A stretch of 64,000 nucleotides of DNA. Source: a virus. Taxonomy: Duplodnaviria > Caudoviricetes. The notes beneath the pieces were generated by a model. The model worked only from the letters and a program-made list of their open reading frames with translations. It ran no database searches and had not been told where the DNA came from. Location of the stretch: positions 17,514 through 81,513 of the IMG/VR virus record IMGVR_UViG_3300026549_000067. One strand, 5' to 3'. The translations under genes were made by a program, and so were the position numbers. Each line of letters opens with the position of its first letter. The stretch's first letter is position 1. Shown piece by piece: positions 38,804-50,023 of the stretch.

Positions 38804-40477
38804 TCAGAATGGACTACTGATAACTCTGCTGGGCGGTGTCGGCGGCGTTCCTACTCTCTTGGCAAACGATGCCAAAACATCGCAAGCGTCATCATGCGCT
38901 GTTTTACCTGCCACCGTGTAACTAAGCAACTGCGACATCATCTTTCCATAATCACTCTTGGATGTATAAAGCGATTTATCTTTGAAGTAGATATGTTCCT
39001 TTACCCACGGAGCATAGATGATGATTTTCGTTTCCTTGTTCGCTGTTGTAAATTCCTGTGTGATATTGCAGTAATAACCTGCTTCTTTCAGACGTTTATC
39101 CACCTCAAACGAAACTCTGTCTCCACCATTGTTCGATTCAAAATGGCACGCTTCTACATGATTTCTCATAATAATGCTCTTGGAACTTGCGTACTGGATC
39201 TCATAATCAGATTCATCGTTGAACACGCAATCGTCCAGATAGTACATGTCTCCGTATTTCAGCAACACAGGCTGTGCAAAGAAGTCGGTTCCTTTGTTCT
39301 TGGTGTCAACTATTGACAAAACCGCATCAGGTTTCTGCATTGGCAACGTCAAGTATCGTTTCAATTCGTCATCATGATACAAGAGTCCTTCACGTTCAAT
39401 CGGCTGATTCATATACAGGCACTTGAATGAGATTTCATCCATTGACTTTTCCATATCATGGAAATACTCTGTAGAAAAACCAACTCCGTACTTGTAGTTG
39501 AAATTGGACTCTCCATTCTCGTCATATGCAGGTATTGCTATGAATCTTGCCCTTGGATCGTCAGCGTGTTCCTGTTGAAGCCGACCCACTACATCAGATA
39601 CCGACCAACGCGTCTGAATGTGTATCTCTTTGCAGAAGTTTTTCTTTCTCGTCTTTAAGTCCGTGTTATATGTCTGCCACAGTTTATCCATACGCTCTTT
39701 GGACAGTGCTTCTTCTATACCACTGCACAAATCGTCCGCATAGAGTATATTTTCACATCGCGTAGCACCTGTAAGGGACGCATTGATCGCACGACATGTA
39801 AGAGACTTAAACCTGTTTGGTTTGCCAACATTAATAGTTTGCTCTTTTGAGTTCATGTCACCACGCGGATTGAACTTCACATGAGGAAATATCTCATGCC
39901 ATGTATATTCAACCGGATCATTCAAAATTTGACCAACTCCGTCATAAAAACTTCGCGTAAGTATTCCTGAGTGCGCTGATGCAAGGTTTGGCATTTCTGG
40001 CTCCCATCCCATGCACCCTGATAAGAAGAAAATTCCTGCCGTACTTTTACCAGAGCCGGGACACATCGACACCGTAAGCAGGTCGATCTCATCATCAATT
40101 AACGCTTGCATTCCCTGTGTTACGCCAAATTGCAGGAATTTATCTCTGCGCGGTTCATAGAATCTCTTGTCAGGATCTCGATTCTTTTCCAGATACAGGA
40201 AATAACTGTCTACGTTCCTGTTCTGCGCTTCGACTTTAAGAAACCGCCAATACAATTCCTCATACGCAATATCCCCTGTCTGTCCTGCCATATACTGACA
40301 CATCTCATGAGCAAACTTGCTATAGCGCATAGCGAATTTTCGCTGTTCAACATCCAAAAGAAGACCTTCATCGCTCATGCCAACAAGAAGATCATGTACG
40401 TCTTGCAGGTTTTCTCTGTTCTCAAGACCTTTGTCTGTAATTGTCTTTATCAGGGATTGATATTGTTCGAATTGCAT
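38804..40477 (-). CDS. terL: terminase large subunit
   Basis: Walker A PGSGKS, ILYADD, nuclease VDT...TDF, HDDACD. Confidence 0.93.
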   Translation of the reverse strand: MQFEQYQSLIKTITDKGLENRENLQDVHDLLVGMSDEGLLLDVEQRKFAMRYSKFAHEMCQYMAGQTGDIAYEELYWRFLKVEAQNRNVDSYFLYLEKNRDPDKRFYEPRRDKFLQFGVTQGMQALIDDEIDLLTVSMCPGSGKSTAGIFFLSGCMGWEPEMPNLASAHSGILTRSFYDGVGQILNDPVEYTWHEIFPHVKFNPRGDMNSKEQTINVGKPNRFKSLTCRAINASLTGATRCENILYADDLCSGIEEALSKERMDKLWQTYNTDLKTRKKNFCKEIHIQTRWSVSDVVGRLQQEHADDPRARFIAIPAYDENGESNFNYKYGVGFSTEYFHDMEKSMDEISFKCLYMNQPIEREGLLYHDDELKRYLTLPMQKPDAVLSIVDTKNKGTDFFAQPVLLKYGDMYYLDDCVFNDESDYEIQYASSKSIIMRNHVEACHFESNNGGDRVSFEVDKRLKEAGYYCNITQEFTTANKETKIIIYAPWVKEHIYFKDKSLYTSKSDYGKMMSQLLSYTVAGKTAHDDACDVLASFAKRVGTPPTPPSRVISSPF

Positions 40478-40533
40478 AAAAAAAGTGAGACTCCTTCCAC
40501 GGATACGCAGAATGGAGACTCACCGGACTTGCA

Positions 40534-40728
40534 TTACACCATTACATGCATATTGAATTTACACTTGGTGCTTTTACATTGTAACTCTAAATTTCGTATG
40601 ATCGTGTTGTCTTGGATTTTGAATTGAGGTTTGTCACAATGCGGACAGCATACCCATTTATCTTTTCCTCTTATGCCGATATACGCTACATCGGTAAGCG
40701 GCAACGGTTTGTTTATGTATTTATCCAT
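40534..40728 (-). CDS. small zinc-ribbon protein
   Basis: WVCCPHC...QCKSTKCK. Confidence 0.65.
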   Translation of the reverse strand: MDKYINKPLPLTDVAYIGIRGKDKWVCCPHCDKPQFKIQDNTIIRNLELQCKSTKCKFNMHVMV

Positions 40729-41341
40729 TCCACCTCTTTCGTTTCAATGGCATACCATGTAGCTTTCTGTAATTGTTAAGCGTTTCGGGAAAGAACCGCT
40801 GTTTGAATTGAATTATTTCACGTTCCGTCAGGTCAACCGTCATTGTCATATCGACAGAGAAGCAATTGATTTTTGTAATACCGTACAGTTCTGCGTCTTG
40901 TGATTCGGAAATCTCTGCAACTCCTTTGATTTCGGTCATCTCACCTGTCTCTACATTTTGCATGTAATACTTGAGATTGTTGTATTCGCCACTACCCATG
41001 CGCTATTCCTCTGGCAGATAATATACATTCGTATTACGGTATTCCGAATGGAACACAAGGTCGTTTTGATTCAACACTATCTCAGGAAACGCATTGCCCA
41101 GAAGTTCAGAAAACACTTCTGCGGCGCGTTCATCATTGTCGTACATTCCAATGATTTTCTTTGTACCGTCCAGATAATGTGCTTCGATGAATCTGTCGTT
41201 CAGTTGGACTGTCTTTACCGCATCAACATTTGTAAATCCGACTCTGGATGAATGAATGATAGTCAATACTCTTCGCTCCTTAATTCGTTCTTGGACTTCT
41301 TGCGGAATATCTTCCTGTTGCGTCTTTTCCAGAACATCCAC
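40721..41341 (-). CDS. two hypothetical genes (40721-40999, 41003-41341)
   Basis: ORF track; in operon. Confidence 0.5.
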
Positions 41342-41460
41342 GTTGACCGATTGTTCTTTGTGGTGTTCGTATACTTCCGAAGAAACTTATCTTCAAACGT
41401 CATCTTCTTGTGCAGATTGTTCTTCATAGGTCTTTTTTAATTTTTGAAAATTTTTTGAAA

Positions 41461-41533
41461 CAGGGGCAGAGCGATTTGAACGCTCGTTGTTGGTGTCAAA
41501 GACCAATGTTTTAACCGATTAAACTATACCCCG
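41461..41533 (-). tRNA. tRNA-Gln(TTG)
   Basis: Cloverleaf; anticodon arm ttggt-ctTTGac-accaa; TTCAAAT T-loop. Confidence 0.88.
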
Positions 41534-41538
41534 ATATT

Positions 41539-41664
41539 TGGATATGACAGGATTCGAACCTGCATGTGATGATTGATCGGATCATCCTGAGTAGTGCGCG
41601 CCCAGTGCATTACCACGGCAGTTATGTTGCACGCTAATTGCAACCGCCTTTATGCTACACATCC
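41539..41664 (-). ncRNA. tRNA-like RNA (126 nt) with ~50-nt insertion before an Ile(GAT)-like anticodon hairpin
   Basis: Acceptor GGATGTG/CATATCC-A; T-arm GCAGG-TTCGAAT-CCTGT; gatgat-ccGATca-atcatc. Confidence 0.6.
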
Positions 41665-41668
41665 ATAA

Positions 41669-41758
41669 TGGATACGGTGGGATTCGAACCCACATTACAA
41701 GTAGGTGGCGAACCCCTTGTTCTTTACCGCCAAAACTCTACCATTGAGTTACGTATCC
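41669..41758 (-). ncRNA. tRNA-like RNA (90 nt) lacking a canonical anticodon loop
   Basis: Acceptor GGATACG/CGTATCC-A; D-arm ACTC-AATGGTA-GAGT; T-arm GTGGG-TTCGAAT-CCCAC; anticodon domain irregular (GG-TTCG-CC). Confidence 0.6.
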
Positions 41759-41771
41759 ATATCCCATTATG

Positions 41772-42622
41772 TTATTTGTTTCGTTTTGCTAACTTTTCTT
41801 CTAACTCCGCAACTGCCTTGTCCAGATCTTCAGAACGCCAGTATGCCTGTCGCTTGCCCTTGCGCTGTTTGTTTATCACGGTTCCACCCATCAGGTAATC
41901 TATGTGGTCAACAATACACGGAAAGATGTTTGTCGCAGTTAGATTCGGCATTTTTCTTGTGACATATTCTCTGAACAGCGAATCATCACATTTGCCAGAA
42001 TTTAAATAGTCTGGAAACTGCTCTTTTGCTTCTCCGCTCTCCATCCACTTGACAAAACCGTCCATGAGCCTGTTCGGTATTAAAATGCACTGGAATGAAA
42101 ACCACATTCCGTTACATGACACCTCTCCGATGTAATTTGTTCTTTCGCCATCGAATTGGTTATTGCAGAACGCATTGGCAAATCCAGTATACTTTTTCTC
42201 AGCAATATCTCTAAAATTTGATCCAATTACAACATCGTCCTGTAAGTGCCATGTCGAATTGTACGGTTCAAGATTCTCCGCTATCCATTTGCAACTTGCT
42301 ACCCATGACGCAAGATTTCCGATGCTGTCATAGTCGTGCCAAACAATAATGTTATCTTCCTCGATGCCCTGTTCTAACAAGCTGGGTAACAGGAAGTCTT
42401 TCACGTACCATTCACGGTCATTGCAGACATGAATCATGTACTTCTGCGCAGTATCAAGATATTTGTCCATGTACTCTCTGCGGTAAATGTTCCGATTCTC
42501 ATACCAATCTTTGATTCCACAGTAATGCACGATTGCTGGATTATCCGTGTATCCTGTCGATTGGTTTTCATTGAATCTCAGCGGTACGACAGCGACTTTG
42601 TTTTGCTCTATGCCATATTTAT
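41772..42622 (-). pseudogene. glycosyltransferase, 3' remnant after IscB insertion
   Basis: RFNE..TG.TDNPAIVHYCG (GT8-like C-terminus) fused to an HLQDD GT-A-like domain; the 5' end MNIVYAMTRNV lies at 44404-44437. Confidence 0.65.
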
Positions 42623-42684
42623 CCAAAAGTAGGAAAGAATACCACCACCTCTAAGCGAAGCATAGGTGGCGGGATGAATTTCCC

Positions 42685-44181
42685 TCACAAATAGACAAGC
42701 CCTGTGTTTTGTGATGTGATTCGACAGTCTCGTCTCGGGTAGTTTGTCTTCTTGTCCCCCACAACACGTAAGTACAGTCCGCCAGAAATCTGCCCACTCA
42801 TCACGTGCCGTTCACCGTTATGAACAAACACAGTTCCGGGCATTAATCTCTTATCGCTATTGTAGTATCGCGTGCTTTTCTTCACGCTTACACGACTCAA
42901 CATATGCATAGCTCTTTGCTCACCATACAATTCAACCTGTTTGTCAAACCAGTCAGATAAGGCATCTCCCTTTTGTTCGAATCGTGGTTTTCTATTCTTT
43001 GCGATCATTTTTCCGTCGTAAAAATATGTACGTTCTCTTTGCGATTTAACGATTGCTCTGTTATGCCTTCTGAACTGCATGATATGGTACATCTCTCCAA
43101 TCGCATCAGGTTCCGGCAGCTCTTTAAAGAAGGAAAGCGCAATACAGTAAGCATCCATGAAATGCCTCTTGGGAAGCTGCAGTTTCTCCCGAATGCTTTT
43201 GGTCTCGTATCCGGTTGTTACATATGTCGGCAGTATTTCAGAAAGCTCCTTAAGAAGCATTTCCATGATCTGGTTGATTAGACTCAGCGCATGATACTTC
43301 TTTAAAATGCCTTCCTTCTTTTCTTTCAGCTTGCCTGCTGCCCGGTCGTTTTTGTGGACCTGCTCATGACAGGATGTACACAATCCGGCGATGTTGTCGA
43401 TACTTTCGCTTCCACCTCTGCTCTTCGGAACGATGTGATGAAACTGCTCGATGTCTGCTTCGCCACAAAGCAGACACTTATGTTTTTGCTGCTCTGCGAC
43501 AGCTTCGTCCCTGCTGTCATATCCAAACAGCCGGCCTTTTTGGTACTCCCAGTTCCTGATGTTCGGATTTTGCATTCTTGCGAAATCAAAAACATTGATT
43601 TCAACAACAACGCAGGTAACCGGAAGAATCTTCTGAATGAGCTTAATACAGTTAATATGCGTCTCCTTTAGCTGTCTTGCTGACGGTGTCAGCCATTCTG
43701 CTGCTCTGGTTCTGTTGTTGAATCTGGCTTCCGTGTTTCTGATATGCTTACAGCAGATCGGCTCCTTACAGCCCGGAAGCATACGCCAGAACTCGGTATG
43801 TTTTGCCATGCCGGTTTTGTCAGATGCTATAGCCCTTCTCTGGCGCTTTTTGCGTTCGCCTCTTCTGGAGGATTGCCGCATCTGCTTTCTATGAAGCATA
43901 AGTTTTGCAATTTCCTTGTTCCTTGTAACTGCTTCCGCGGCATAAAGAACATTGCCTCTTGAATCCACTGCTGTAAGCCCGATATTCGTTCTTCCCGGAT
44001 CGACGCCAAGAATTACATCATCCGTAAACGGATTCTCGATATCGTATGTGAGCTGAATGGTGAAAGGCTTATAGCATGCAATATGGGCCTTTCCCGACTT
44101 TAACAAGCGCCTTGCGCGCCCGTATTTGTGGATTGGCATCAGCGGCTTGCCACTTTTTGCCAGTACGTAGATATTTGGCAT
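42685..44181 (-). CDS. iscB: RNA-guided endonuclease IscB
   Basis: PLMP N-terminus, RuvC-I GVDPG, Arg-rich bridge helix, RuvC-II VVE, HNH HHIVPKSRGG..NIAGLC..CH, RuvC-III HFMDA. Confidence 0.95.
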   Translation of the reverse strand: MPNIYVLAKSGKPLMPIHKYGRARRLLKSGKAHIACYKPFTIQLTYDIENPFTDDVILGVDPGRTNIGLTAVDSRGNVLYAAEAVTRNKEIAKLMLHRKQMRQSSRRGERKKRQRRAIASDKTGMAKHTEFWRMLPGCKEPICCKHIRNTEARFNNRTRAAEWLTPSARQLKETHINCIKLIQKILPVTCVVVEINVFDFARMQNPNIRNWEYQKGRLFGYDSRDEAVAEQQKHKCLLCGEADIEQFHHIVPKSRGGSESIDNIAGLCTSCHEQVHKNDRAAGKLKEKKEGILKKYHALSLINQIMEMLLKELSEILPTYVTTGYETKSIREKLQLPKRHFMDAYCIALSFFKELPEPDAIGEMYHIMQFRRHNRAIVKSQRERTYFYDGKMIAKNRKPRFEQKGDALSDWFDKQVELYGEQRAMHMLSRVSVKKSTRYYNSDKRLMPGTVFVHNGERHVMSGQISGGLYLRVVGDKKTNYPRRDCRITSQNTGLVYL

Positions 44182-44403
44182 AATGCCTCTCCTTTCGTTA
44201 GTTTTGCAGCGATAATGACTGCAAGTCCAGCCGCTGCCACTGTTAAGTTTCCCGAGGCTTGGCGCAGCCTTTGCATTGCACGGAGCTGGGAAAACCCCGC
44301 GGTGTATGCTGCGTCACGCCTCTGCTCAACTACTCGTTGGACTTTATGCAAGCCCCCACTTCAAACAGATGCGCCAGCGTCTGTTAAGTGGTGGGTAGTT
44401 GAC
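44182..44403 (-). ncRNA. omegaRNA scaffold of IscB
   Basis: Starts gtcaactacccaccactt...aagtgggggcttg, then gttgagcag; sits directly upstream of iscB. Confidence 0.85.
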
Positions 44404-44492
44404 ACACGTTTCGTGTCATTGCGTATACGATATTCATGCCAGTTGCCCTTTGCCCCTAAAAATTCTTCCATGAACACAATCATAATCACAAA

Positions 44493-44565
44493 CGGAAACG
44501 GTAGGACTTGAACCTACGACCCCCTGATTAACAGTCAGATGCTCTACCGACTAAGCTACGCTTCC
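44493..44565 (-). tRNA. tRNA-Asn(GTT)
   Basis: Cloverleaf; ctga-ctGTTaa-tcag anticodon arm; GTTCAAGTC T-loop. Confidence 0.92.
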
Positions 44566-44801
44566 ATGTCGCTCCGTCCACCCTTCGGAGCATTGCGTCT
44601 GTTTTCATCGGTTCGTGGTAGTGAACTGCTGACAGGTGGAAAGCACTTAGTAGCTTGCACTGTGTAGATTAGTTTAATGTCTCTCTGCACTAAGACGAGT
44701 ATCCATATAACAGAATGTTGTGGGAGAGCCATAACTGACAGCCATCACCCACAACCTCTGTGAAAGGAAACAGATATTGGAAAGAAAAATAACAACGGAT
44801 C

Positions 44802-45421
44802 CCCATGAACACAATCATAATCATAAATGGATCTTCACCCTACACAACAACATCGTCACAATATTCAGCCACCGTTCCGACAAGTCTGAGCCATAAGGAG
44901 CGACCCTATAACTTCTTGCCAGTTCCCATAAGGGACAGTAACGAGTCCGAGTGGTCACGGAACAAATTTCACGCAGGTCATTCAGATTTTCTTGACCTAA
45001 TAACGGTACATGGATTTCAAGTCCATTCCGTTCTCTTCCATTTCAGAAGTCAATGCCAATTTGCGCTACTCTTTCACCGAACAGGTCTTATTGTCGGATT
45101 TCTCCGACTCAATGGCACAAGCTGTTTATGGACATTTCCGAGCGTTTCCGTATGTTGTCCAGACATACAGGCGTATCGGATTAAGCGATGCAGTGCATCT
45201 CTCTATTGCACAGCCGACCTGACAGCAACCTTTTGCGGCAACATTATTATGCGCATACGCTTGTCGTTGACGGTTTCCGTCTTCCAGAGAAACATCACTG
45301 CACCTCTGAAGCATACATACGGAAGTATCCCACCGCATATATACTTGACATACGCGCATCCCAAGCACGCTGACTAAGCGATCTTCACTTGGGTATTTAT
45401 GACCATGATTGTGTTCATGGG
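44802..45421. repeat. 27-bp inverted repeat enclosing the large RNA (44802-44828 / 45395-45421); third arm copy 44468-44492
   Basis: cccatgaacacaatcat(aa/gg)tcataaat; the third copy is 24/25 identical to the first arm. Confidence 0.9.
44829..45393 (-). ncRNA. ROOL-like (ROOL/GOLLD class) giant ornate RNA, ~565 nt
   Basis: No convincing sense ORF; next to tRNAs. Motifs recognised from memory: GUGAAGAUC at both ends, CUGUGCAAUAGAGAGAUGCAC, AAUAAGACC..GGUGAAAG, AAUCUGAAUG, GGUGGCUGAAUA..GUAGGGUGAAG. Confidence 0.75.
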
Positions 45422-45423
45422 AA

Positions 45424-45487
45424 AGGATTCTGTGCGGAATCGAACCGCAGTAACGAGTTATGCGTTACGCACTCCAGTGCCGATCCT
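45424..45487 (-). ncRNA. compact tRNA-like structure (64 nt)
   Basis: GCAC-TGGA-GTGC, GTAACG-CATAACT-CGTTAC, TGCGG-TTCGATT-CCGCA, closed by AGGAT/ATCCT. Confidence 0.5.
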
Positions 45488-45725
45488 AAATGATGAGATC
45501 ATCTATTATTCGCTTTTTTGGTGGGGACGCTTGTCTCTTCGGTGTTCCCCAAACCTGCACGCCTTATAAATGATTCAGCAAATGAAGGTAATTGATTATG
45601 AGTAGGTGAAGTAGTAGGCAATTCTGGTGTCGGCGTTGCACCGTTTGTCACGAAAAGCGCACCGGAGTTTTTGACGCTCCTTTAATCACAGCCATCTGCC
45701 GTAGTGCGCAAGGAGTATAAAGTAT

Positions 45726-46132
45726 GTCAACTACCCACCCACTAAAGTGAGTGGGCTTGTAACTATCCGGTAGTCCGAACGACCTGTGGTCTCCTGCCTT
45801 TGTTACAAGCGAGCTTGCTGATGTTACATCACGGGACGGTTGACAACGCCCCTTGCAAAGGAGATGTACTCCGATGCAACTGCAACGGTACTTGATTCCC
45901 ATGCTTGCAGTTAAGATGGTTATTTCAACACTTAAGATTTTACATTCCAAGTGATTAGTTGGAAAAACCTCATATCTTAACTTGTCAATGTTCAAAGAGT
46001 GCCTTCAGTAACAATGGTTACCCAACGGTTTTCTCTATGGGAATATTATAACACAAAATCTCACTTTTAGAAAGGAAAAACGGCTCCTCCCACCTGCTAA
46101 AGCAAGTGGGTTTCCGCCGCTGAATCAGTTTT
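45726..46132. mobile_element. ORF-less IS200/IS605-derived element (407 bp)
   Basis: gtcaactaccc terminus like the IscB element, with hairpin cccact-aaagtg-agtggg; second hairpin cccac..gtggg at 46089-46110. Confidence 0.7.
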
Positions 46133-46276
46133 ATGAAAAAAGCAAAACTGAAACAGTTTTCTTAATTCCAAACTAATCCAAGATTCATTGCAAATATTGC
46201 GATCCAGAACAGCGATAAAACACTTACAGCTTCACTTTCCTTCTTCATCAGCATGATTGCCATAATCATGATCGCA

Positions 46277-46732
46277 TCAAGAATCGTAACGATGATTTTG
46301 TATGCTAACATCTGTTCCTAATACTCTGTCGAGTATCCTTTCTGCCAGTTTGTCGTTGTTTTCGTAATTTCCTGCTTCATCCAGAGCCGACCTGATGGAT
46401 GCCAGAAAACCATTTCGCAGGTCTTCGTCCATCTGTAAAGCGAAGTCCAATCCTCTGATGCACTCCACTGTCGATTCTGGTGAAATGTTTATTCCGATGT
46501 CAGCAAGTCCGTCAAATTCGAACCCAGATACAAGTTCCAGATCAACATGCGGTACCTCGTATGGTTCTGCATGGAAATCAATTGCCACAACATAGTTCAC
46601 AGATGATCCGTTTATCTCTACGCTATATCCATTTCCGACATCATTCAGTTGTTTTATCTTGACATTACCTACCATCGTCATATTCGAACCCATCTCGCAT
46701 ATCGTCAGCAGTGATTGCGTTGTTTGGATCAT
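46277..46732 (-). CDS. hypothetical protein
   Basis: ORF track; acidic composition. Confidence 0.5.
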   Translation of the reverse strand: MIQTTQSLLTICEMGSNMTMVGNVKIKQLNDVGNGYSVEINGSSVNYVVAIDFHAEPYEVPHVDLELVSGFEFDGLADIGINISPESTVECIRGLDFALQMDEDLRNGFLASIRSALDEAGNYENNDKLAERILDRVLGTDVSIQNHRYDS

Positions 46733-46997
46733 TTGTCATCAGAATCCCACGCCGCTGTGTTGCACTTTGTGGCATTGGTGGCTCCGAATCTTTCTCTAAG
46801 AACTCGATTTCAAAGTCCAAATACTGTCGTGCTTTCCGCAGATCATCAAGAATTGTGTTTCCGTCCTTCCGACCTGCTCTGACAATGTATTTCACGACAT
46901 TGCCAAGATTGAAATTCAAATTCCAACCACGAATCGCATCCTTCGGCTCGATATCGGCATATGTGTAATGCTTCGGAGCATGAATCTTATCACTCAT
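46665..46997 (-). CDS. DUF3310-like protein
   Basis: IHAPKHY...FNLGNVVKYIVRAGRK...DDLRKARQYL; start approximate. Confidence 0.85.
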   Translation of the reverse strand: MSDKIHAPKHYTYADIEPKDAIRGWNLNFNLGNVVKYIVRAGRKDGNTILDDLRKARQYLDFEIEFLEKDSEPPMPQSATQRRGILMTNDPNNAITADDMRDGFEYDDGR

Positions 46998-47400
46998 CGA
47001 GAACCTCACTGACAAACCTTTTGCCAAACTTCTTCTCTGCTTTGCTTCTGGACATCGACAGAATCTTGCAGACGTTTTCATCGACCATCGAGACGATCAA
47101 TTCACACATGTTGCTTTCAACATGCTCATGCAGTTCTGACAAAACTTCCTGAGCGATTTCGCATTTCAGCTTGTCCATAACAGATGCATCTTCATCTACG
47201 ATGTAATCACATTCGACAGCTTCAATGTCATCAAGTACCGCTTGGATGTCAAGCACCATTGCATACTGCTTCTTCGTCAGATCATCTGTCGAATATTCCG
47301 ACATGCCATATTCAATTACCATGTAGACCTCTTTTTTGTTTTTTAAAAATTTTTGGAATTGGTATTTTAGATCTCCGTATACCATTTCGGTATCGGGCAT
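46990..47400 (-). CDS. hypothetical acidic protein
   Basis: ORF track. Confidence 0.5.
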   Translation of the reverse strand: MPDTEMVYGDLKYQFQKFLKNKKEVYMVIEYGMSEYSTDDLTKKQYAMVLDIQAVLDDIEAVECDYIVDEDASVMDKLKCEIAQEVLSELHEHVESNMCELIVSMVDENVCKILSMSRSKAEKKFGKRFVSEVLDE

Positions 47401-47487
47401 ATAGAGTATATATATCTCACTAAGTCATTTGACCTGTGGCTTTGAGTAGATTTTATTACAAAAATGTTTAACAAGCAAACACAGTAA

Positions 47488-48144
47488 TTAAATTGCGACT
47501 TTTTCGGAAGTTCCGTCTCGCCATATAAATGCATAACGTCTTCCGTCTTCATAGTCTAGGAATCCCACCTGCTTTCCGTTTCTTACGCCACCGTTACAGT
47601 TTGCATTCAACAGGTCAATGTTGTTTCGGTATCGCTTAATACCGTGTTCTTTCTTGAATTCATCAAACCATACTGTCTCTGCGAAGTTTCCGCGAACACC
47701 AAGTTTGTCTTTGCATTCCGATTTTGATATCTTGCAGTTGAAGAAGTCAAACAACAACTCTTTGTAATTCTCTGAGTGAACTCTTTTTCGACCGCTGACT
47801 ATCTTTAGCTTTTCGCTTCGTTTTGCTTTCGCAAAATTCGACATGTGTATTTTCATGTGACACGTTAGACAAACCGGAGCGATGTTCGTGAACCTGTTTG
47901 TTCCACCGACCTCAAGCGGCACAATGTGGTGATATTCGATTTCCTTGTCATCTCCGCAGTTTACGCACTCTGTCCCACATTTCTCTGGTAACTGCTTATG
48001 AAACTTGGCTGACGAAAACTCTTTGCGCAATCTTTCGTATTCTGTCATAGATGCACCCTCACTTTCTGTGTGTGATTCGGTGTATGCATCTTTCAGAATG
48101 ACTTCTGATGCGCTCCTGCCGATATTCCGTTTTGGTCTTAACAT
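47488..48144 (-). CDS. HNH endonuclease
   Basis: CVNCG....EYHHIVPLEVGGTNRFTNIAPVCLTCH. Confidence 0.88.
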   Translation of the reverse strand: MLRPKRNIGRSASEVILKDAYTESHTESEGASMTEYERLRKEFSSAKFHKQLPEKCGTECVNCGDDKEIEYHHIVPLEVGGTNRFTNIAPVCLTCHMKIHMSNFAKAKRSEKLKIVSGRKRVHSENYKELLFDFFNCKISKSECKDKLGVRGNFAETVWFDEFKKEHGIKRYRNNIDLLNANCNGGVRNGKQVGFLDYEDGRRYAFIWRDGTSEKVAI

Positions 48145-48698
48145 TCTGCGTCCCTGATAATGCGATCCAGTGTGGGTCTGGAAACGCCAAGCTGTCTAGC
48201 AACTTCAACCTTCTTCATCGTTCCTTCTGCGAGTGCGGTGAGAAATTCATCGATTCCGTCAATAACCACGGACTTGCGACCGCAGTTTTTGTATGCACCA
48301 TTGCGCTTTGCGATCTCGATACCTTCCTTCTGACGTTCAAGCATGTTTGTGCGCTCAAATTCAGCAATCGCACCGATCATCGTCAGCATCAGCTTTCCTG
48401 TCGGTGTGGATGTATCGACAAACTCTTTGTTGCTTACCAGATGGATGTCTCTCTCGTTCAGTTTCTCGACAATTTCCAGAAGATCCTTTGTGCTTCTTGC
48501 GAGTCTGGAAAAATCATGAACGTAGATCGTATCTCCGCTCTCCGCTTCTTCCATCATCCTCTGCAACTCTGGACGATGTGTGTTCTTGCCAGATACCTTC
48601 TCGATGTACCAGATGTCGATGCCGTGTTTCTTGAGTCCTTCGATCTGCCGCGCTTCATTCTGCTCGACAGTGGAAACCCTGACATATGCTCTCTTCAT
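48138..48698 (-). CDS. small serine recombinase (resolvase/invertase)
   Basis: AYVRVSTVEQ catalytic Ser motif, SRLARS, AEFER, C-terminal HTH; 186 aa. Confidence 0.93.
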   Translation of the reverse strand: MKRAYVRVSTVEQNEARQIEGLKKHGIDIWYIEKVSGKNTHRPELQRMMEEAESGDTIYVHDFSRLARSTKDLLEIVEKLNERDIHLVSNKEFVDTSTPTGKLMLTMIGAIAEFERTNMLERQKEGIEIAKRNGAYKNCGRKSVVIDGIDEFLTALAEGTMKKVEVARQLGVSRPTLDRIIRDAEC

Positions 48699-48732
48699 GT
48701 TGTTACCGCCCTTTCTATAACTTTATAGTGTA

Positions 48733-48803
48733 ATTGTAGCATGGATCGGTAATGTTTTCAACACTAAATATAACTTTACAGTGTATTTTTTCTGTGTTAA
48801 AAT
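48733..48803. promoter_or_regulatory. back-to-back sigmaA promoters
   Basis: Minus TTGAAA-17-TACAAT (48733-61); plus TTTACA-17-TAAAAT (48775-803). Confidence 0.65.
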
Positions 48804-48832
48804 GTAAACATTAAATCAGGGGGTACAAACAC

Positions 48833-49069
48833 ATGAACAATACGATTATCTCTCCGACAGGTAACTTGACCATAGATCTCAAAACCGTATTCAGTTCTTC
48901 GGGAATGAAACTTAAAGATATCAATGCTGAATTCAATAAGCGTAGAGGTGTCGATCTTGGATACCAGAACTTTAGTAACCGTCTATCGAGAGGTACATTC
49001 AAATACCAAGAGGTTGTAACTCTTCTCGATATCGTTGGATATGATATTCAGTGGATCAAGAGATCATAA
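48833..49069 (+). CDS. small HTH regulator divergent from recombinase
   Basis: MKLKDINAEF...YQNFSNRLSRGTFKYQEVVTLLDIVGY. Confidence 0.7.
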   Translation: MNNTIISPTGNLTIDLKTVFSSSGMKLKDINAEFNKRRGVDLGYQNFSNRLSRGTFKYQEVVTLLDIVGYDIQWIKRS

Positions 49070-49399
49070 GTGTATATGGACTCTGTGTAGTGTTTATCTA
49101 CATGGAGTCTTTTTTTATTTTAAAAAAAATTTTAAATATACACTACTGGTCTTTTTTGTTAAAAAAATATTTAATATACTAACTGCCGTTCGATGACCGC
49201 GATTCACTGACCCCGAGCCGGTATCCTGTGCCGCTTTCCTGCGTCTGGTTTTCGTGCCGTTTTCGTCTCGTCAATTTGCACAAAAAACAGTTTGCAAAAC
49301 ACTTGTAAAAAAATATCGTGCTTTTTCTTTACGTTTTGCGCAGATTTTCGCGGTTTTGCTGATCGTTTCGCGGATCTTTTGCGGATCTTCTGAAGCTGG

Positions 49400-50023
49400 T
49401 CAGCTTGTTTCCGCGTCGATCAATCGCGGTTTTGCAATATCTGCATACTTTTCAGCTATCTGTTCCGGTGTGGCTTGCTGTTCTTGTGTGCTGATCACTT
49501 CGACTTGCTGAACGTTATCACGGTATTGATAATTTGCTTTGAGGTTGAATATATCGCCGATGGATCCGCGGGTAGCTTCTCCCAGTGAAACGGATTCGCA
49601 ATAGTCAAACCATTTTTGAACCGTGCGTCTAGTTTCAGGATTTGCCTTGTAACCACCTTGCCTGTAAGATCCTCGTTTTACGTCTCCAACTATGTTACGG
49701 TCTATATCAACGAATACACAAAACTGTTGTATAGTTGGGGTTATAGAATACCTAGAACATAAGACAGAATAAATATTATCAAAGATCTCATCCAGAAGAT
49801 TATAGTTATTATTATAATTATTATTTCTATGTTGTTTATCTGTATCAATGATATATTTAACTTTGTATTTATATATATACTTTAGCATTCCAGAGAAAAC
49901 AGATGGTTTTGTAATGCTTATATTTTCTGGCAATGTGTTTATATATTCTTCGCAGAGAACGTCTATTTCACTCTGGTATACTTCAATGTTTCCAGTGCTT
50001 AAAATAACATTGTCGATTGCCAA
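49400..50023 (-). CDS. probable terminase small subunit / DNA-packaging protein
   Basis: PTIQQFCVFVDI (HTH-like), IFNLKANYQYRD C-terminal motif; first gene of the late region. Confidence 0.6.
   Translation of the reverse strand: MAIDNVILSTGNIEVYQSEIDVLCEEYINTLPENISITKPSVFSGMLKYIYKYKVKYIIDTDKQHRNNNYNNNYNLLDEIFDNIYSVLCSRYSITPTIQQFCVFVDIDRNIVGDVKRGSYRQGGYKANPETRRTVQKWFDYCESVSLGEATRGSIGDIFNLKANYQYRDNVQQVEVISTQEQQATPEQIAEKYADIAKPRLIDAETS

Follow-up and report, generated by a model that had tools for sequence, protein, structure and literature searches.

A full-length ROOL RNA gene within the tRNA array of a rumen/gut-type tailed phage

The 620-nt segment at positions 44802-45421 of the DNA analysed here (referred to as the window, a 64,000-nt stretch of a tailed-phage genome) is an ordinary, genuine full-length ROOL RNA, a further member of a known family. 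The RNA is homologous to the family along its whole model, its fold is under selection, its context is that of a phage genome, and it is embedded among tRNAs on its own strand. The explanation that best accounts for the whole locus, to which we assign a probability of about 85%, is a functional minus-strand ROOL gene in a tRNA array, the transcript of which would be processed by tRNA enzymes and would form a cage.

Identity, extent and closing stem

The initial annotation had placed a ROOL/GOLLD-class RNA at 44829-45393, with no strand given, and had proposed a covariance-model search. This search (cmscan, Rfam release 15) returned a match to ROOL (RF03087) at 44810-45416 on the minus strand (607 nt) with 340.7 bits (E 7e-78), far above the Rfam gathering score of 99.1 bits. 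The whole model was covered (positions 1-574 of 574) with a mean posterior of 0.91, and the interval annotated initially corresponds to the inner 565 nt of this match. With the outer extension of the closing stem, defined by inverted repeat I1, the full unit measures 620 nt (44802-45421, minus). The strand is that of nearly all genes in this phage.

The source is an IMG/VR virus record of 81,513 bp, rated 100% complete, and its genome carries a single ROOL. Downstream of ROOL lie the large terminase gene (TerL, 38804-40477) and then the portal gene, with a resolvase and IscB also nearby; ROOL is located between the early/accessory genes and the packaging module of a rumen/gut-type tailed phage. 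A Clostridia host is weakly suggested by TerL relatives at 43-48% identity in MAGs of Blautia, Pseudobutyrivibrio and Oscillospiraceae. When deposited phage genomes (INPHARED) were searched for close relatives, tRNA-Asn alone matched. Exact 21- and 30-mers of this ROOL variant detected only the sibling (L008, 97% identical in TerL) in IMG/VR, and a metagenome scan for the variant yielded L218 and L220, the hit in L219 being an unrelated 22-nt match.

The closing stem P1 consists of the two 27-nt arms of I1 (93% complementary), with the 5' strand at 45395-45421 and the 3' strand, termed copy A, at 44802-44828, both read on the minus strand; the 5' strand shows compensatory changes relative to L218. 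In most ROOL clusters the closing duplex outruns the Rfam ends and takes up the short interval that separates them from the tRNA. A CCTTGA(A/T)AA-like motif was observed 10-20 nt 5' of the Rfam ROOL start in L182, L183, L194, L201, L204, L208, L209 and L211, and its position in the outer closing duplex indicates that Rfam under-calls the ROOL ends by ~10-18 nt per side in many members. The extra-long closing stem was also considered as a lineage-specific processing device, and this was rejected on finding comparable stems elsewhere (L211, -47.2 vs -48.7 kcal/mol here).

A second ROOL 3' closing strand, termed copy B (44468-44496, minus), lies just after tRNA-Asn. Copies A and B constitute direct repeat D6, two 29-nt units with 93% identity that lie 335 nt apart, and the P1 5' strand forms a duplex of -43.4 kcal/mol with copy A and of -38.8 kcal/mol with copy B. 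This near equality would fit a functional switch or a longer processing stem, in which some transcripts enclose ROOL, the spacer and tRNA-Asn, as would the derived GTGTTCATGG in copy B, which matches its own 5' strand where L218 and the sibling have GTGGTTATGG. We nevertheless consider such a switch unlikely. The shared GTGTTCATGG state could equally result from intragenomic duplication or from conversion between the repeats, and copy A has the advantages of earlier transcription, a shorter distance and stronger pairing. Moreover, copy B is unique to this genome among loci spanning 13 clusters (20 of 24 matches, compared with at most 16 of 24 in the other loci examined, from 12 other clusters) and is absent from both close relatives; it was accordingly rejected as a family feature. 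In L218, copy B and the sequence 3' of it have their aligned counterpart at the junction between the ROOL 3' end and the glycosyltransferase gene, which duplication or recombination explains. Judged from these alignments, copy B is best read as a recombination or duplication scar bracketing a 335-nt block. A further variant, by analogy with the tRNAs in some GOLLD linkers, is that alternative closure around tRNA-Asn would yield a cage subunit with a covalently tethered tRNA. We regard this as very unlikely; if true, a tRNA-tethered cage subunit would link the cage directly to tRNA handling.

Around the RNA, no Rfam ribozyme family matched at E<=10 in 44420-44840, 44700-45520 or 45400-46280. 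Theta ribozymes, for comparison, are minimal HDV-like ribozymes (Kienbeck et al. 2024, PMC10879173). The gap between the upstream tRNA-like element and the closing stem is 2 nt, leaving no room for a 5' ribozyme. No tRNA abuts the ROOL 3' end in this lineage; given this and the lack of a ribozyme match in the three intervals, the 3' end is probably generated by trimming to the stem or by a double-strand-specific nuclease.

Fold, divergence and alternative readings of the locus

The initial annotation had described a large, hairpin-rich non-coding RNA, and the thermodynamic analysis agreed with the full-length ROOL match in bearing this out. The minimum free energy (MFE) was -220 kcal/mol compared with -173 +/- 6 kcal/mol for shuffles (z = -7.7), and 0 of 20 shuffles were as stable. 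The 620-mer reached -237 kcal/mol with its ends paired. Comparison with the sibling L008 (92% identical) revealed that 14 of the 18 pairs touched by substitutions were kept, 6 of them via double changes; against L218 (89% identical), 23 of 33 touched pairs were kept, 11 via double changes, and sliding the partner by 1-3 nt as a control reduced the double changes in the L218 comparison to 0-2. In both comparisons, the substitution rate at paired positions was no higher than at unpaired positions. Across 13 ROOL clusters including the window (one representative each, at most 90% identical), RNAalifold predicted 102 pairs, 78 with compensatory changes, a count that, like the cmscan structure line, ignores pseudoknots (three in the ROOL consensus; P10 and P13 in env-120). 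The three diverged copies in the window, L008 and L218 show a selected ROOL fold.

A variable linker, a hairpin-loop region poorly conserved family-wide, was located at 44977-45060 (minus), where the cmscan alignment contains a 26-nt insertion. Two small hairpins are predicted there in the MFE structure, and one linker hairpin pair (373/387) changes from C-G to G-C in the sibling.

We then weighed how far this RNA departs from the rest of the family. The signature blocks GGGATAC, GGTCGCTCC and GCTCAGAC are all present; the original ROOL paper names 10 highly conserved nucleotides (PMC5737381). The other 12 clusters share 116 invariant columns; this RNA retains 92 of them (79%) and misses 24, some of which may reflect MAFFT misalignment. 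No blastn match longer than 300 nt was found between this ROOL and the 12 other clusters. Its score of 340 bits compares with 350-406 bits in the 30 best-scoring loci and 287-348 bits in the remaining loci, which fits a divergent member. These sequence comparisons indicate a divergent yet intact ROOL, one among the more divergent ROOLs, and its score together with the 24 missed columns means that cage formation is not to be assumed.

The same score and the same loss of otherwise invariant columns would be expected of a ROOL that has lost its function and is decaying as a relic within a mosaic tRNA region, and two features of the setting point the same way: ROOL has a patchy distribution in this lineage (2 of 50 TerL relatives carry it), and mobile elements riddle the neighbourhood. 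Decay is, however, very improbable here. The ROOL is not truncated, the 6 and 11 double compensatory changes that keep the fold lie well above the slid-partner controls, and the pairing positions accumulate substitutions no faster than the unpaired ones.

An ATG-initiated ORF of 190 aa lies antisense to ROOL (44805-45377, plus), and one might suppose that the locus encodes this protein and that the RNA features are secondary. A run of this length was reached in 0 of 2000 mononucleotide shuffles, and the ORF remains open in the sibling L008. Against this stand a pN/pS of 1.03 relative to the sibling, with the 41 differences distributed 12/16/13 by codon position, and the nature of these substitutions, which are compensatory changes within the RNA fold. 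The ORF had no Pfam match at E<=1, and it opposes the transcription direction of the neighbouring minus-strand genes. Open antisense runs in the 12 other ROOL clusters span 69-134 aa, and the ORF is not conserved. Its pattern of substitution shows neutral evolution, and it tests as non-coding; its openness may be a by-product of ROOL base composition. As a gene it was rejected on the grounds of neutral evolution, lack of a family match at that threshold and lack of conservation, and a coding origin of the locus is extremely unlikely. On the RNA strand, the longest stop-free run is 96 aa, in accordance with the initial annotation, which had seen no credible sense ORF.

The reading of this RNA as a relative of GOLLD, or as a hybrid of ROOL and GOLLD whose 3' domain is GOLLD-like, can for practical purposes be set aside: it was suggested by the statement in the initial annotation that the 3' part resembles GOLLD and by a genomic context common to both families (phages and nearby tRNAs; PMC5737381), but the GOLLD model, with its universally conserved 3' region, gave no match at permissive thresholds (E<=1 across the 10 kb of window positions 40000-50000; E<=10 across the 821-nt locus, 44700-45520), the ROOL model spans the entire RNA including its 3' part, and the sequences and secondary structures of GOLLD differ from ROOL's (PMC12286853). 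GOLLD, which assembles into a D7 14-mer cage made of RNA only (PMC12286853), resembles the present RNA as a large ornate phage or prophage RNA near tRNAs. It differs in having no sequence or structure match at this locus and in a linker that can carry tRNAs; those of the present locus are located outside the closing stem.

The tRNA neighbourhood and mosaic history

As the initial annotation had stated, the RNA lies among tRNAs. tRNA-Asn (GUU; 44492-44566, minus; called by ARAGORN, Rfam tRNA 71.9 bits) is located 235 nt downstream of ROOL, and a tRNA-like cloverleaf is located 2 nt upstream, both on the ROOL strand. tRNA-Leu, tRNA-Gln and an odd 126-nt tRNA match, likewise on the minus strand, follow ~3 kb downstream. 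To place this arrangement in the family, we used a conserved ROOL motif, which identified 80 viral loci; a full ROOL was present in 45 of the 46 records searched. The tRNA context was counted in 31 other loci with 1.5-kb flanks, representing 12 clusters besides the window. Every tRNA near ROOL was on the ROOL strand (31 loci, 12 clusters). In 26 of the 31 loci (8 of 12 clusters) the end of a tRNA fell between -10 and +25 nt relative to the model start. In 4 of 12 clusters a tRNA began between -5 and +20 nt relative to the ROOL 3' end; loci of the L081 type have ROOL as the exact spacer between tRNA-Met and tRNA-Ser. This tight abutment suggests that tRNA-processing enzymes probably make the ROOL ends. 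Co-transcription of ROOL with tRNAs has already been suggested by Weinberg et al. 2017 (PMC5737381).

A promoter consensus scan revealed no convincing minus-strand promoter just upstream of ROOL. The extended -10 element TGTTATAAT (46045-46053, minus) lies inside an orphan mini-element that is absent in L218 and therefore cannot be the ancestral ROOL promoter. A second candidate, TTACCT-17-TATAAG (45563-45591), was rejected as it is not conserved in L218. Elsewhere in the family, L208 (1390-1500) carries its own near-perfect sigma-70 promoter, TTGACA-17-TATAAT with an upstream TG, ~35 nt before ROOL; not all ROOLs need read-through from tRNA arrays. A block of ~50 nt at 45655-45706 (minus; CACTACGGCAGATGGCTGTGATTAAAGGAG.GTCAAAAACTCCGGTG) lies upstream of the tRNA/ROOL array in the window, L218 and L002; the L218 copy is nearly identical, the L002 copy 86% identical. 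The sequence between this block and the tRNA-like element is poorly conserved. The block might serve as a leader or regulatory site, or as a target for insertions.

The upstream element (45424-45487, minus; 64 nt) ends 2 nt before the closing stem and folds, at minimum free energy, into a four-arm cloverleaf with a canonical T-loop, UUCGAUU. Its acceptor stem has 5-6 bp, it lacks a variable loop, and folding gave a weak z-score (-1.7). Neither the Rfam tRNA model (E<=10) nor ARAGORN (thresholds down to 80%) recognised it. The L218 homologue adopts the same fold; its acceptor stem measures 7 bp, a T-stem pair has changed on both sides from G-C to A-U, and its 'anticodon' arm is unrelated, the loop having 4 nt where the element here has 7. 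This conservation is measured against one relative, L218, the sibling contig being cut inside ROOL, and the two elements were compared by independent folds, because their stems differ in length and a column-wise alignment falls out of structural register. In 8 of the 12 other ROOL clusters the slot that this element fills is occupied by a real tRNA. The element is a conserved tRNA-shaped signal, tRNA-like in shape only and not a decoding tRNA. Its conservation in L218 with a different 'anticodon' arm suggests, on the predicted folds, that it is probably an RNase P/Z processing handle setting the ROOL 5' end.

The tRNA-punctuated processing of long transcripts is familiar from rRNA operons, which have embedded tRNAs and long processing stems, and the 3' end of MALAT1 is formed by RNase P via the tRNA-like mascRNA element. 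Like these systems, the present locus has a non-decoding tRNA-shaped element at the boundary of a long structured RNA, and a long terminal duplex that joins the 5' and 3' ends. It differs in that the element stands 5' of the large RNA and in that the enzymes here are inferred.

Downstream, the 235-nt spacer between ROOL and tRNA-Asn (44567-44801, minus) contains a long hairpin at ~44700-44752 and another hairpin directly 5' of the tRNA. The spacer is ~81% identical in the sibling L008, where the hairpins are kept, and is absent from L218; no Rfam family, ribozymes included, matched it at E<=10. The second hairpin, GCUCCG-loop-CGGAGC, was observed both directly 5' of tRNA-Asn (44567-44590) and directly 5' of the sibling's 126-nt tRNA-like element (L008:735-763). 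It is conserved despite the different downstream tRNA and could be a processing signal or the boundary of a recombination event. In the window, the 126-nt Rfam tRNA match (41539-41664, minus; 33.3 bits) was not called by ARAGORN; it has good acceptor and T arms with a large internal insertion. It is 93% conserved in the sibling, where it stands directly after the ROOL spacer, and ~89% conserved in L218.

The order of modules around ROOL differs between relatives. In the window, ROOL is followed by the spacer, tRNA-Asn, copy B and a glycosyltransferase gene interrupted by IscB; in L218, the tRNA-like element and ROOL are followed directly by an intact glycosyltransferase gene of 458 aa; in L008, ROOL is followed by the spacer and the 126-nt tRNA-like element; and in L002, the upstream anchor is followed by tRNA-Met and tRNA-Asn, with no ROOL. 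The uninterrupted glycosyltransferase gene of L218 (L218:1087-2463) includes ~490 nt missing from the window, and the sibling L008 lacks the entire block of tRNA-Asn, glycosyltransferase gene and tRNA-Leu.

The initial annotation had proposed a functional RNA operon from the co-location of ROOL with tRNA mimics and RNA-guided elements. Co-location with same-strand tRNAs was confirmed family-wide, as described above, and the RNA-guided element, IscB, proved incidental. This element (RRXRR and HNH; 42685-44181, minus; 498 aa) interrupts the glycosyltransferase gene (42623-44437), and a weak HEARO/omega-RNA match lies beside it at 44242-44403. IscB is absent from both L008 and L218, each of which carries ROOL, and none was found in 129 other ROOL loci (938 kb in total), which indicates an incidental mobile insertion. 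IscB/omega-RNA was rejected on the same grounds as a functional partner of ROOL.

A second trace of such elements was observed upstream. An orphan omega-RNA-like mini-element with no nuclease gene occupies 45726-46150, with a HEARO-like match of 21 bits on the plus strand (45726-45869). The start of the IscB omega RNA recurs, inverted, in the first ~35 nt of the mini-element (inverted repeat 44390-44410 / 45719-45739). At the corresponding empty site in L218, the end of the upstream gene runs straight into ...CCATTCAAT|ATACTCC..., which corresponds to the window just below 45726, and this identifies the orphan element as an insertion.

Proposed maturation, cage assembly and role

ROOL RNAs are encoded in phages near tRNA islands (PMC12286853). 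The solved member used for comparison with the present RNA is env-120, a ROOL of 659 nt from cow rumen; it assembles into an octamer of 280 A with D4 symmetry, inside which the linker is disordered (Kretsch et al. 2025, PMC12286853). The RNA described here agrees with the family and with env-120 in length (607-620 nt vs a family mean of 581 nt; RF03087, PMC5737381), in its multi-stem architecture with a long terminal helix and a variable internal linker, and in its phage genome, same-strand tRNA neighbourhood and rumen/gut-type source. It differs in that its 5' neighbour is a non-decoding tRNA-like element rather than a real tRNA, in that no tRNA abuts its 3' end, and in that it is known from sequence, whereas the env-120 cage comes from a solved structure.

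We propose the following course for the functional ROOL gene. ROOL would be co-transcribed with the tRNAs, and host RNase Z and/or RNase P would free its 5' end at the tRNA-like element. The closing stem of ~27 bp would protect both ends. For the 3' end, an exonuclease would most likely trim back to the stem after an RNase P cut at tRNA-Asn, or a double-strand-specific nuclease would act on the closing stem. By homology with env-120, the flat monomer would then self-assemble into a hollow D4 cage of eight copies with the linker directed inward, and, on this analogy, assembly into an env-120-type cage is the most likely fate of this RNA. Copy B and the neighbouring IscB would be by-products of recombination and transposition that stand outside the device.

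For the function of ROOL, the literature suggests that it may encapsulate tRNAs, ribosomes or other cargo. Its most likely role is as an accessory encoded by the phage and related to translation, which would enclose or sequester something and travel with tRNA genes. For the family, the present locus adds one rather divergent ROOL to well over a thousand known members. The arrangements in the window, L008 and L218 indicate that ROOL moves as a module bounded by tRNA genes. In this lineage the tRNA slot is kept by a non-decoding element that conserves the acceptor and T arms, which points to tRNA-processing enzymes as the makers of ROOL ends. Together, the tRNA-like element and ROOL offer a precursor design that is simple and can be tested in work on expression and cage assembly.
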